In this document: positions 644-4,589 of the stretch, piece by piece
Numbering within the stretch: the first letter of the stretch is position 1
Layout: each line of letters begins with the position of its first letter
Source: Nitrospiraceae bacterium
GTDB lineage: Bacteria; Nitrospirota; Nitrospiria; Nitrospirales; Nitrospiraceae
Length of the DNA: 20,000 nt
Assembly (NCBI GenBank): GCA_037442105.1
Contig: JBBIQV010000012.1
Coordinates: forward strand, 50,067 to 70,066
Reading direction: 5' to 3'
Notes under the pieces: generated by a model
Databases searched by the model: none
Told to the model about the DNA's origin: nothing
Seen by the model: only the letters and a program-made list of their open reading frames with translations
Program-made: the position numbers and the translations under genes

Positions 644-672
644 TTGACACGTTTTTCTAATGGGCGTAAGAA
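644..672 (+). promoter_or_regulatory. sigma70-like promoter of repeat unit 1
   Basis: TTGACA (644-649), N17, TAAGAA (667-672). Same architecture as 1159-1187. Confidence 0.55.
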
Positions 673-699
673 GAATGTGCGGCCCAACAATTATCGAGT

Positions 700-1103
700 T
701 GCAGGGGGACCGGACAGGCCGCGCGGCTGTCAGCTAGATCCCCTGGGATACTTGAAAAGGGAGGAGGGTAGCGATGGACGACCTGACTCCACCTGGCTTA
801 AACGGCCCGCCGACTCGATGGCGGGTTTCTGCTCGGTCGTGCTAGCCGATTCTCCACTGGCTGTGTCCTAACGGCACCATAGACCACCTGGTTATCAGCC
901 TGAGCACGTAGCGGAGAATCAGACGCTGGCGCGAGGAACACAAGCGCCTGGGACGAGTTTTTCCCCCGACCGGAATCCACGCTGTTCGTCATCGCGCGGG
1001 TCTTTTTGTTGGGCCGAGAAAAATGAACAGACCTTTCGGCGTCCTAAGCGCCACCCGCGGGCGGCCTCCCTCCACAGTCTAGACAGGCCGCCCGTGCAGT
1101 TTC
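700..1103 (+). ncRNA. Structured RNA unit, copy 1 (unknown family)
   Basis: Diverged direct repeat of 1221-1624. Multiple stems show compensatory changes between copies. Ends in a GC-rich hairpin (1056-1096). Confidence 0.7.
774..845 (+). CDS. Putative 23-aa micro-peptide MDDLTPPGLNGPPTRWRVSARSC
   Basis: AGGGAGGAGG SD at 758-767, ATG at 774, TAG at 843-845. SD, start, length and stop are conserved in copy 2. Confidence 0.4.
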   Translation: MDDLTPPGLNGPPTRWRVSARSC

Positions 1104-1158
1104 TGCTTCGAGGTCCGAAAATAAGTGATGTTCTTCTCTGACGAGCCGTGCTCCCATG

Positions 1159-1187
1159 TTGACACCTTTTTTGAAGAGGAGTAAAAA
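1159..1187 (+). promoter_or_regulatory. sigma70-like promoter of repeat unit 2
   Basis: TTGACA (1159-1164), N17, TAAAAA (1182-1187), followed by GAA as in copy 1. Confidence 0.55.
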
Positions 1188-1220
1188 GAAGTATAAGGCT
1201 CGTTGCCTTACAGTACACGA

Positions 1221-1624
1221 TGTTGGGGATCAAGCAGAGCGCGCCTGCAGAATGAAAGTGTGATCCCCGGACAACCTCCAACCAGGGAGGAGGTGGGTAA
1301 TGGAAGACCTTAGTCCACCGGACTGGAACGGCCCGCCGAGTCAGAGGCGGGCTTCTCGTCGGTCATGCTAGCCGGTTCTCCACTGGCTGCGCCTCTCGGC
1401 GCAAAAGACCAACCGGATAGAAGCCTGATTGCGTGACGGGGAACTGGACGCTGGCGTGAGGAACACAAGCGCCTGGGGTGATTTTTCCCCCCGACCAGAA
1501 GCGTGATCCTTTCTTCCTCGCACGGGTCAGCGGTGAACCTCACAATACAATAAAAAATCTTGGCGCCCTAAGCGCCATCCACGGGCGGCCTCCCTCCTAG
1601 TCGATGGGCCGCCCGTGCTGTTTC
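1221..1624 (+). ncRNA. Structured RNA unit, copy 2 (unknown family)
   Basis: Paralog of 700-1103 with the same order of stems. 3' hairpin at 1580-1617. Confidence 0.7.
1300..1371 (+). CDS. Putative 23-aa micro-peptide MEDLSPPDWNGPPSQRRASRRSC
   Basis: AGGGAGGAGG SD at 1284-1293, ATG at 1300, TAG at 1369-1371. 14/23 residues identical to the copy 1 peptide. Confidence 0.4.
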   Translation: MEDLSPPDWNGPPSQRRASRRSC

Positions 1625-1769
1625 AGAGCCAAGGGGTGCCGTTCTGCCGTGGTTGTCCGCGCGCGTAGTGGTGGCGAGTTCGTACAAACACCCCTTGCGG
1701 TTCAAGATCGATGCGGCATAAGATGGAATGCCACTTTGCCCGCTGGCTTGCAGCACGGAGGGAGTGATT

Positions 1770-3050
1770 GTGTTCTGGGAAACGCGGCAACCGTCGAATA
1801 CGCCCAACCGATCCTGTTCGTTTTGCGGAAAACGCCAAGGCGTGGTCCGTAACCTGATCCAGAGCCCCACGCCTTACAAGTGCGATTCCTGCCGGAGCGG
1901 ATCCACGCTGCTGATCTGCGAGGAGTGCATTCAGCGCTGTTCCACTTTCGTGGATAAGGAACAAAACGGGGCGAAGGGCTCGTCCTGCTCCAAGCCGTTG
2001 GTGGTTCCCAAGCCGGCGGAGATCAAAGCGACGCTCGATGACTACGTGATCGGGCAGGATCGCGCCAAGAAAGTCCTCTCGGTTGCAGTGCACAACCACT
2101 ATAAACGGATTTTGAACCGTGACCGGCTCACCCACGTCGATCTGCAGAAGGGTAATATCATGATGATTGGGTCGACGGGGACCGGCAAGACGCTCCTGTC
2201 CCAGACCCTGGCGAAGATTCTCCACGTCCCTTTCGCCATCGCCGATGCCACCACCCTGACGGAGGCCGGCTACGTGGGAGAGGACGTCGAGAACGTGGTG
2301 CTCAAGCTCCTGCAGAACTGTGACTACGACGTGAAGCGGGCCGAAACGGGAATCATTTACATCGATGAGATCGACAAGATCAGCCGGAAGTCCGAGAGCG
2401 CCTCGCTGACGCGAGATGTGTCTGGCGAAGGTGTTCAGCAGGCGCTGCTGAAACTGGTGGAGGGGACCATCTGCAACGTGCCGCCGAAGGGCGGACGCAA
2501 ACATCCGGAGCAGGACTACATCCGCGTGGATACTACGAACATCTTATTTATCTGCGGCGGGGCCTTCGTGGGACTGGACCAGATCATCGCTCAGCGTACG
2601 ACGTACAAGCGAGTAGGATTCGATGCGAGCGACCCGACGACTGAGATTGACGGCCACACCGACGCGCTCAGCCGCCTGCGCTCTGAGGACTTGCTGAAGT
2701 TCGGACTCATTCCGGAGTTTGTGGGCCGATTTCCCGTTCTGACGACCCTGTCAGACCTGGACGTTCCCGCCCTAATCCGCATCCTGACGGAACCCCGCCA
2801 TGCGCTGGTCAAGCAGTATGAGGCGCTCTTCGAGCTCGAGGGGGTCCGGCTTCAGTTTACCGACGCGGCAGTGAAAGCCGTCGCGCGTCGTGCTGCATTG
2901 ATGAAAACCGGCGCGCGGGCGCTCCGCACGATCCTGGAAGATGTCATGCTGGATCTCATGTACGATGTACCGACGATGGGCGGTGTGAAATCCGTGGTCA
3001 TCACGGAAGAGGTCATCGCCGGGATCGGGCAGCCGCAGATCATCAACTAA
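1770..3050 (+). CDS. clpX: ATP-dependent Clp protease ATP-binding subunit ClpX (stand-alone paralog)
   Basis: CSFCGK..CEEC zinc-binding domain, GSTGTGKT Walker [49 protein letters not shown]. Start is probably GTG 1770 after GGAGGG (the ORF track starts at 1728). Confidence 0.95.
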
Positions 3051-3629: not shown

Positions 3630-4589
3630 TCAGGCAGTCTTCCGGTAGACGAGTTCGGCCTCCTCAGATTTCGCTTCTCTGACCGCCTCTTCTTCCGCCC
3701 CGGCCGAAGCGAGCGAAAGTCCGCCGCAGAAGACACTCACTAAGCCCAGGACTGCTGCGAAGAGGTAGCCGAGCGGGATCTCAGGCCAGGACGCCGGTTC
3801 TGTGGAGGCCACCGGTGCTGCCCCGGCTTTTGGTTCCGCCGCAGCGAGCTGGGCCAATCGGTCCGCCAGACTTTCCGTACGAACGGCGGCGACAACCGAA
3901 CTAGCAAGTTGCTGCTGGTTTGCGGCAAGGGCTTCTTCTGAGGACGTTTGGGCTTGCGCCACATGCAGAATGGCATTGCCGATCCGTTCCTGGATCGAGC
4001 TGGCCAACCAGGCTTGTTCCTGGGCGGCTTCCACGATCGCGCGTCCGAGATTCGCCTGCCGCATGGACAAGAAATTCTGATCAAGACGCTGCCCCATTAC
4101 TTCCGTCAGCCGGATCAGACGGTCGTTGTACTCGGAGATATACCAGTCGTCCACCGGCATTCCTGTCCCGATCCCACGACGGGTGAAGTTTACGATGGCC
4201 CGTCCCATCACGGTCTGGACATGAGCCGCGTGATCGCTAGGGCCGGTCGCCGCGCGACGGATCACGAGTTCCAGCGGGCCACCGGATGTGGCTTGCAGGA
4301 CGTGATGAGCCATCGTGGCGCGGTTCAACTCCGATACCGCGTCGGCGATGGTCCGAGAAGCGTGGCGTTCGAGGAGATATGTATCGACTAGAGCCTGGCC
4401 GAGGGCGGGCTGCAACCAAGTCATTCCGGCCAGAATGCCGGAAGGTTGCTCGACCTCGACAGGGACCGGAGGCAACGTGGCTGCCTGCAAGGTTCCGTTG
4501 GCGGCTTCAAAGAGCAGGTACCCTCCGAAGATGATGACGCACAACCCGACGGCGACGATCAGGTCAACTGGTTCATACTTGCGCATCAT
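3630..4589 (-). CDS. Hypothetical membrane-anchored helical protein (N- and C-terminal TM)
   Basis: 319-aa ORF with an AGGAGG SD. Hydrophobic segments at both ends and an Ala/Gln-rich helical middle. Confidence 0.8.
   Translation of the reverse strand: MMRKYEPVDLIVAVGLCVIIFGGYLLFEAANGTLQAATLPPVPVEVEQPSGILAGMTWLQPALGQALVDTYLLERHASRTIADAVSELNRATMAHHVLQATSGGPLELVIRRAATGPSDHAAHVQTVMGRAIVNFTRRGIGTGMPVDDWYISEYNDRLIRLTEVMGQRLDQNFLSMRQANLGRAIVEAAQEQAWLASSIQERIGNAILHVAQAQTSSEEALAANQQQLASSVVAAVRTESLADRLAQLAAAEPKAGAAPVASTEPASWPEIPLGYLFAAVLGLVSVFCGGLSLASAGAEEEAVREAKSEEAELVYRKTA

Follow-up and report, generated by a model that had tools for sequence, protein, structure and literature searches.

What kind of gene is represented by the two related, highly structured units that lie near the start of a 20-kb stretch of the genome of a Nitrospiraceae bacterium (contig JBBIQV010000012.1, positions 50,067 to 70,066; the whole stretch of 20,000 nucleotides (nt) is termed the window, and positions below refer to it)? 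The first-pass annotation of the window offered two options, a new large structured non-coding RNA or a 'regulated mini-mRNA', located next to an orphan clpX. We propose that each unit may be a free-standing structured RNA gene of ~430 nt, acting as a ribosome-gated switch without a gene to control, and give this proposal about an even chance. The predicted order of the parts is a 5' hairpin, a Shine-Dalgarno (SD) sequence, a mini-open reading frame (mini-ORF), a 205-nt domain, a CCUAA hairpin and a terminator-like hairpin. The features of the two copies are as follows.

644-672, plus strand: copy 1, promoter-like block of putative function, with TTGACA at 644-649, the spacer TTTTCTAATGGGCGTA at 653-668 and TAAGAA at 667-672
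680-685, plus strand: copy 1, 5' box CGGCCC, predicted to pair with GGGCCG at 1011-1016 and to close helix P0
704-745, plus strand: copy 1, 5' hairpin P1, with covariation
750-769, plus strand: copy 1, anti-SD:SD hairpin and SD sequence GGGAGGAGGG, in which 750-753 pairs with 761-764
774-845, plus strand: copy 1, mini-ORF of 23 codons plus TAG, MDDLTPPGLNGPPTRWRVSARSC, with Pro-Pro-Gly at 789-797 and Gly-Pro-Pro at 804-812
803-1003, plus strand: copy 1, closed 205-nt domain comprising LR-A, LR-B, P3, P4, P5 and P7
804-827, plus strand: copy 1, local hairpin H3 (804-810 with 821-827), of which the 5' arm is the Gly-Pro-Pro codons
1038-1052, plus strand: copy 1, hairpin P8, GGCGU-CCUAA-GCGCC, canonical in 93 of 93 alignment cells at all five pairs
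1056-1104, plus strand: copy 1, GC-rich terminal hairpin (1056-1096) and U-rich tail GUUUCU, from pair probability and covariation
1159-1187, plus strand: copy 2, promoter-like block, with TTGACA at 1159-1164 and TAAAAA at 1182-1187
1300-1371, plus strand: copy 2, mini-ORF of 23 codons plus TAG, MEDLSPPDWNGPPSQRRASRRSC, of the Pro-Pro-Asp type
1327-1531, plus strand: copy 2, closed 205-nt domain, matched by covariance model R1 (see below) with 185 bits (G000:C12:51393-51597)
1562-1624, plus strand: copy 2, CCUAA hairpin (1562-1576), terminal hairpin (1580-1617) and U-rich tail

Copy 1 (644-1104) and copy 2 (1159-1624) lie in tandem on the plus strand and are diverged copies of one unit that can be aligned from end to end. 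They were 75% identical over ~340 nt in blastn (query 115-460), and the offset between them read from repeat families was 515-526 nt. The tandem, diverged arrangement described in the first-pass annotation was thus borne out, and the TTGACA-N17-TAARAAGAA start that it assigned to each copy can be read from the sequence of both. Searches with blastn and with R1, a covariance model of the central domain comprising 208 positions and 58 pairs, found two copies of the element in the genome from which the window was taken, both of them at this locus.

The element was searched for in the DNA of 201 genomes of the order, and was found in 77 of the 87 other genomes of the family to which the window belongs, spanning 11 genera, and in none of the 113 genomes of three sister families. 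With R1, the element was detected in 15 of 18 genomes of the family, in addition to that of the window, while the sole match among 132 genomes drawn from 21 further families of the phylum was a 45-nt fragment of 21.7 bits and none was credible. Furthermore, an exact-pattern scan of the genomes of 185,579 species yielded at least 120 stretches. Among the 80 scan matches listed, 73 were labelled as Nitrospira, Nitrospiraceae, Nitrospirales, Nitrospirae or Nitrospirota, and two more, labelled as 'uncultured bacterium' and 'Nitrosospira sp. isolate CMX', carried the element as judged by nhmmer; the five from other taxa gave no nhmmer match and were regarded as chance matches to the pattern. Altogether, the element family is confined to Nitrospiraceae as far as searched. 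A single genome contained one to four matches, and many genomes possessed two, either in tandem or at separate loci. We rejected the possibility of a mobile repeat because of these low numbers per genome and of the recurrence of flanking genes (PPK2 upstream at 11 and an APC permease at 17 of 29 loci).

No match at the gathering score was found when the entire 20-kb window was searched against Rfam 15. At an E-value of up to 10, only sub-threshold matches appeared, the best being mir-663 (25.4 bits against a gathering score of 75) and RsmY, the latter covering copy 2 with the best E-value (19.1 bits, E-value of 0.045, gathering score of 57). Likewise, the search of 14 homologous loci at an E-value of up to 0.1 found nothing inside the element, albeit one match to transfer-messenger RNA (tmRNA) was found outside it. 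The Rfam scan, which the first-pass annotation had named as the check on novelty, therefore leaves the novelty standing, and the proposed new family of large structured RNAs is supported by the lack of a known family and by strong covariation (see below). The element is not tmRNA: the model RF00023 matched elsewhere in the genome (181.8 bits; G000:C12:31652-31999), it gave no match to the element at any threshold used, and the element bears an SD sequence and an ATG. The tmRNA gene resides on the same contig, 18.7 kb upstream of the element; at locus L053, a tmRNA gene (281-631) is only ~1.5 kb upstream of a tandem pair followed by clpX, which may be a matter of chance. A full-text literature search, with supplements and subscription literature lying outside it, retrieved no paper on a Nitrospira regulatory RNA.

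The secondary structure was modelled first with RNAalifold on 31 sequences, which yielded 83 predicted pairs, both sides having changed in 39. The model was refined by averaging single-sequence pair probabilities over 115 and 93 sequences and then tested on the 31-sequence alignment. In the 93 pairs tested, 92.6% of the cells were canonical, compared with 88.4% in shuffled alignments and 39-45% in slid controls. Changes on both sides were found in 43 of the 93 pairs, as opposed to 20.0 +/- 2.7 in the shuffles (none of 500 reached 43) and 12-20 with slid partners. The covariation by which the first-pass annotation would have its proposal judged is, in other words, present.

The main architecture is a composite long stem made up of three segments of pairing between 803-846 and 925-1003, which enclose P4, P5 and P7. 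The three segments are LR-A (803-815/990-1003), LR-B (823-836/966-978) and P3 (837-846/925-934), the last of which covers the stop codon; the enclosed helices are P4 (848-856/912-921), P5 (859-867/873-900) and P7 (950-953/962-965). This stem, which buries the 3' two-thirds of the mini-ORF against a strand lying 90-190 nt downstream, was missing from the list of stems in the first-pass annotation. The length of the 803-1003 domain was 199-222 nt in the 78 sequences that were less than 88% identical, and a conserved unpaired motif, GAGGAACACAAG, resides inside the long stem at 933-944.

Most of the individual stems that had been listed previously were found to be kept across the family, namely the 5' hairpin (704-745), CCCGCC/GGCGGG (804-810/821-827), GATTCTCC/GGAGAATC (848-856/912-921), GTGTC/GGCAC (863-867/873-877), GGCGY-CCTAA-GCGCC (1038-1052), whose loop is near invariant, and the terminal hairpin (1056-1096). 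Two others are local to the window. The GGCGY/GCGCC stem around GAGGAACACAA is present there, but was canonical in only 75.6% of the cells in 115 sequences, and its GGCGC is engaged with the stop-codon region (GC 61/AU 29/CG 5 at one pair). As for the GGTC..ACC arm, it too is present in the window, but only 46.2% of the cells were canonical in the family. In the 5' hairpin P1, the covariation among 93 sequences was GC 47/AU 37 and AU 47/GC 28. The four pairs of the anti-SD:SD hairpin were paired in 95.2% of the cells, and two of them showed changes on both sides. A closing helix P0 between CGGCCC and GGGCCG (680-685 with 1011-1016) is possible in the model: its mean pair probability was ~0.36, 81-86 of 89-92 cells were canonical with a few UA replacements, and it was 94.4% paired in alignment A2 (31 sequences) with no change on both sides. 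The open reading frames on the reverse strand (798-992 and 1368-1523) were disfavoured, as the indels between the copies are not multiples of three and the fold is on the plus strand. Outside the element, the 12-mer GAGGAACACAAG or its complement occurs exactly at two further sites of the genome (G000:C3:23715-23726 and G000:C18:11507-11518) with no R1 element there. In a search for candidate pairing targets with up to one mismatch, the complement of this SD-like motif was found at 23 genomic sites, of which two are the elements themselves, as compared to 13 for a backwards control.

At the 5' end, TTGACA and G-GTA were invariant in 31 of 31 sequences, and the base table of 93 sequences indicated that the 16 nt after TTGACA (653-668 in copy 1 and 1168-1183 in copy 2) are conserved almost as well as TTGACA itself, far beyond what is usual for a spacer. 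The same conserved promoter-like block in front of each copy agrees with the earlier suggestion that each has its own promoter. The hexamer 17 nt after TTGACA reads TA[AG]G.. and ends in T in two of 93 sequences, and a simple sigma-70 scan called no promoter in 400-1900. For the stretch represented by TTTTCTAATGGGCGTA, candidate roles are an operator and the -10 element recognised by an alternative sigma factor; GAC-N16-CGTA in the block resembles the pattern of extracytoplasmic function (ECF)-type promoters. At the 3' end, the terminal hairpin had a pair probability of 0.9-0.98 with covariation. It was not called by a terminator scan that requires five T in eight positions, and, together with its U-rich tail, it probably represents an intrinsic terminator.

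Of 138 distinct instances of the element, 132 contained the mini-ORF motif; three of the six misses were truncated at the 5' end, and the others were L052, L057 and L077. The start codon was ATG in 130 of the 132 and GTG in the rest, with a GGAGG-type SD sequence upstream in the instances listed. Ninety-six of the mini-ORFs were of 23 amino acids (aa) and 19 were of 14 aa, followed by 20 aa (five instances), 19 aa (four), 15, 16 and 40 aa (two each), and 8 and 37 aa (one each). The consensus is M-[D/E]-[D/E]-x-[T/S]-P-P-[G/D]-x-x-G-P-P-x, comprising four Pro codons within the first 13 and two diprolyl motifs, T/S-P-P-G/D and G-P-P. Third-position variation was concentrated in codons 2, 3, 5, 6, 7 and 12. 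The entropies summed over codons 2-8 were 2.55, 3.29 and 6.97 for the first, second and third positions, while those summed over codons 16-22 were 5.08, 5.67 and 4.47. In codons 16-21, the third position varied the least, implying a constraint by RNA pairing rather than by protein. In the 31-sequence alignment, which was free of any motif filter, the CC.CC.G columns (Pro-Pro-Gly/Asp) were invariant in all 31 sequences. Premature stops with the downstream pairing intact were seen at codon 17 in L018 and L030 and at codon 15 in L015 and L019. Thus, the mini-ORF looks translated over its first 13 codons, as judged from the substitution pattern, and its tail looks shaped by RNA pairing.

These data do not support the earlier view that selection in the micro-ORF acts on the RNA only, given the third-position variation and the invariant CC.CC.G. 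The 1-nt indel 3' of the micro-ORF, on which that view was based, was recovered in the alignment of copy 1 and copy 2; it breaks the frame beyond the stop codon but not within the mini-ORF. Between the two options offered by the first-pass annotation, 'regulated mini-mRNA' is nearer than a plain non-coding RNA, considering the coding signal of the first 13 codons. There are two paralogue types, one with T-P-P-G and the other with S/T-P-P-D, the latter often bearing a 14-codon frame. In every tandem pair inspected (the window, L019, L039, L053, L073, L075 and L094), the Gly type came first and the Asp type second. Copy 2 contains an additional GTG-started frame of 40 aa on the plus strand (1478-1600), which begins with MIFPPD and lies over the conserved UCCCCCGA. 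We rejected it as a second 3' ORF because it is out of frame in copy 1 owing to a 1-nt length difference in a T/C run.

The strand encoding the second diprolyl motif, GGCCCGCCGA (804-813, codons 11-14), has two alternative partners, one local and the other distal. The local partner, GGCGGGY (821-827; hairpin H3), was 98.2% paired in A2, and one of the H3 pairs covaried among 115 sequences (GC 86/AU 18/GU 7). The distal partner, UCGcGCGGGUC (992-1002; LR-A), was canonical in 96.1% of the cells in 115 sequences, and single-sequence thermodynamics favours the long-range form with a mean probability of 0.7-0.8. The third base of Pro-12 covaried with both partners: the triple was G/C/C in 82 and A/U/U in 15 of 115 sequences, with the wobble intermediates G/U/C in seven and G/C/U in four, A/U/C in three and others in four. 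In a neighbouring triple, L030 had U/A/A versus C/G/G in 104 sequences, and the next pair along showed U/A/A in two, U/G/A in five and U/G/G in three. Furthermore, the loop bases of H3 covaried with the distal strand (UA 27, CG 19 and GC 15 of 93). As the G-P-P strand covaries with both the local and the distal partners, the two helices, which are mutually exclusive and compete for the strand of the second stall motif, appear to be both under selection.

In other bacteria, ribosomes form peptide bonds slowly at Pro-Pro-Gly/Asp and Gly-Pro-Pro, in a manner dependent on elongation factor P (EF-P) and prolyl-tRNA, with PPG and PPD ranking among the strongest of the stall motifs that depend on EF-P. 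We envisage that transcription would run from the TTGACA block to the terminal hairpin and that ribosomes would load on the strong SD sequence of the mini-ORF. The RNA free of ribosomes would sit in the closed long-stem form, with the mini-ORF buried from codon 10 to the stop. A translating ribosome would open the long stem, and its dwell on the Pro-Pro motifs would be set by EF-P activity or the supply of prolyl-tRNA. With Pro-7 in the P site, the ribosome would reach the base of the G-P-P helix and, at Pro-13, it would cover that helix. During the dwell neither helix could form, and the distal strand, comprising UCGCGCGGGUC, CCCCCGA.CAGAAG and the junction with GAGGAACACAAG, would be single-stranded. 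The speed of elongation at polyproline would in this way be converted into the conformation of the RNA, of which the candidate outputs are pairing or binding of a partner in trans and control of the decay of the RNA itself.

Several points weigh against this proposal. Transcription, transcript ends and translation of the unit are predicted from sequence, stalling at Pro-Pro motifs in Nitrospira is assumed by analogy, and the output is a guess. The promoter-like site appears atypical in both the lack of a last-place T in the -10-like hexamer and the conservation of the spacer. The alignments were made by MAFFT, which is not structure-aware, and the 132 sequences had been selected with a filter for CCN-CCN-G[GA]N, by which Pro-6, Pro-7 and the G/D at residue 8 were partly fixed by construction. 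The 15 A/U/U sequences may be one clade and represent one event. Finally, when a simulated ribosome footprint was held unpaired, no conserved new helix appeared at a mean probability of 0.3 or above. The terminal hairpin had a probability of 0.98 in silico with or without footprints at the two Pro-Pro sites, and we rejected a terminator/antiterminator logic, because the footprints neither changed this hairpin nor created a conserved helix. The lack of an occupancy-dependent helix implies that the freed strand would have to exert its effect either through a binding partner or by laying the RNA open to decay.

The coding signal can also be read as that of a small-protein gene, in which a peptide of 14-23 aa (MDDxTPPGxxGPP...) is functional and the folded 3' part stabilises the mRNA or tunes translation. 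The strong SD sequence, the near-universal ATG, the third-position variation in codons 2-8 and 12, and the occurrence of the frame in nearly all copies agree with this reading. Nevertheless, the C-terminal half of the peptide is not kept (36 of the 132 frames are not of 23 aa, including the 19 that end at codon 14), the least variable third positions fall in codons 16-21, and a conserved peptide of 13 residues made up mostly of two stall motifs would be an unusual effector. Besides, a small-protein gene leaves aside the non-coding 205-nt domain of constant length, the conserved unpaired motifs and the covariation that matches the conservation of the ORF. We thus consider this explanation unlikely.

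The opposite alternative is a purely non-coding RNA, whether ligand-binding, protein-sequestering or a sponge like CsrA/RsmY, in which the ORF is incidental. The constant length of the domain and the conserved unpaired motifs, GAGGAACACAAG and CCUAA, are compatible with such an RNA, and the weak RsmY-like match over copy 2 points in the same direction. A CsrA from Nitrospira defluvii is reported to have been put to the test in PMC13443453. However, the RsmY-like match did not recur in the 14 homologous loci, and the ~7-8 conserved GGA per 460 nt (counted by hand in the 31-sequence consensus) are close to an estimate of the chance number. GAGGAAC (933-939) was the only GGA-type motif that was both unpaired and conserved. 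Constraints on the RNA would not be expected to produce the three-base periodicity of variation seen in codons 2-8. We regard a purely non-coding role as improbable, and return to the ribosome-gated switch as the reading that we prefer.

The genes around the element bear on whether it serves a neighbour in cis. We surveyed the flanking genes at 29 homologous loci. The downstream gene was a convergent APC amino-acid permease on the opposite strand at 17 of them, and the upstream genes included PPK2 (11 loci), DUF4412 (four), an aquaporin-type MIP (four), FGE-sulfatase, NIR_SIR and a methyltransferase (two each). The copies of the second type were followed or flanked by CBS, glutamine synthetase (GlnA) and MscS on the same strand, and by MsrB, Tim44-like, GDPD and Kup on the opposite strand. 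In the window, the 3' end of a trehalose-phosphatase-like gene (2-538) lies upstream of the element. Genes for water, ions and osmolytes (MIP aquaporin, MscS, Kup, Na+/H+ exchanger, trehalose phosphatase and APC permease; loci L004-L006, L014, L075, L095 and 2-538 of the window) appear often among the neighbours. An open frame of 319 aa on the minus strand (3630-4589) had no Pfam match at an E-value of up to 1e-5.

Downstream of copy 2, the window encodes a ClpX homologue in an open frame of 1728-3050, with a probable GTG start at 1770 (1770-3050). Its adjacency to the element, noted in the first-pass annotation, is real, but the gene is a paralogue rather than an orphan, as a second ClpX with 63% identity is encoded in the genome (G000:C51:2210-3397); no clpP was seen among the ORFs examined up to 4589. 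The association turned out to be lineage-specific. Apart from the window, clpX on the same strand followed the element at 3 of the 149 other loci searched: the tandem pair and clpX are separated by 145-147 nt in the window, L019 and L053, and in L050 a lone copy precedes clpX by 715 nt. In addition, the spacer ahead of clpX contains a promoter-like site of its own (1695-1724; TTGCGG-N18-TAAGAT, or TAATAT in L019 and L053), conserved in all three genomes aligned. Given neighbours that differ between loci and a downstream gene that is frequently convergent, the element is a stand-alone unit and not generally the leader of a downstream gene.

A cis-acting leader or ribosome-mediated attenuator for the downstream gene, here the clpX paralogue, is therefore highly improbable despite the few tandem pairs 145-147 nt ahead of clpX and an architecture resembling proline-codon leader ORFs, because the adjacency is rare, the neighbours are varied or convergent, clpX carries its own promoter-like site and simulated ribosome occupancy leaves the terminal hairpin unaffected.

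In soils, waters and treatment plants, Nitrospira are the main nitrite oxidisers and the complete ammonia oxidisers; they grow slowly and are hard to manipulate. The element would be a multi-copy RNA gene found family-wide in this group, in which a polyproline frame of 13 codons is wired into a two-state helix, and the three-way covariation behind it is unusual. If elongation at Pro-Pro is sensed, the element would be a leader-peptide switch without a gene, and would extend ribosome-mediated sensing from the cis control of operons to a stand-alone RNA. More speculatively, it might be one lineage of an undescribed, cross-phylum class of free-standing 'stall-sensor' RNAs that report elongation capacity by their conformation, with the Pro-Pro-Gly and Pro-Pro-Asp paralogues of Nitrospira having different thresholds; we find this extension possible but doubtful. 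If it is true, such RNAs would be abundant, their sole translated part would be a tiny polyproline frame in a bistable helix, and the capacity sensed would be that of EF-P and prolyl-tRNA, perhaps under osmotic or proline stress, with no need for a downstream gene. In any case, R1 can be used for annotating Nitrospira genomes and metatranscriptomes.

Among the known systems, mgtL and mgtP of Salmonella are the proline-codon leader ORFs of mgtA and mgtCBR, of which the output is transcription into the downstream genes. They share with the Nitrospira unit a short Pro-rich ORF preceded by an SD sequence within an RNA that can form alternative helices, and the speed of the ribosome at Pro codons, governed by proline supply or EF-P, chooses the fold, as we propose for the unit. 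Unlike mgtL and mgtP, the unit has a terminator-like end, a conserved 205-nt domain and no constant downstream gene; it showed no occupancy-dependent change of a terminator in silico, and there is no relation in sequence or in Rfam. Measured against leader attenuators in general, the element has a short ORF rich in the codon to be sensed, with a coding signal as judged from its sequence, and helices that share the ORF strand. Neither an occupancy-dependent terminator or SD sequence (in silico) nor a constant same-strand downstream gene (29 loci) was found.

In secM-secA and ermCL-ermC, a ribosome arrested on a short ORF keeps a helix open, similarly to what is proposed here. The opened helix in those systems frees the SD sequence of the next gene, whereas the Nitrospira unit has no conserved second ORF or start. 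tmRNA (RF00023) is likewise free-standing and structured, measures ~350-430 nt, contains a short reading frame in its interior and is linked to stalled ribosomes. It consists of a tRNA-like domain and a tag frame that has neither an SD sequence nor a start codon, in contrast to the element, which has both an SD sequence and an ATG. The dual-function small RNAs RNAIII/hld, SgrS/SgrT and SR1/SR1P resemble the Nitrospira unit in being free-standing structured transcripts of a few hundred nt that encode a tiny peptide. In these RNAs the ORF and the RNA part are largely independent of each other, whereas the ORF of the Nitrospira unit is itself a strand of the main stem.

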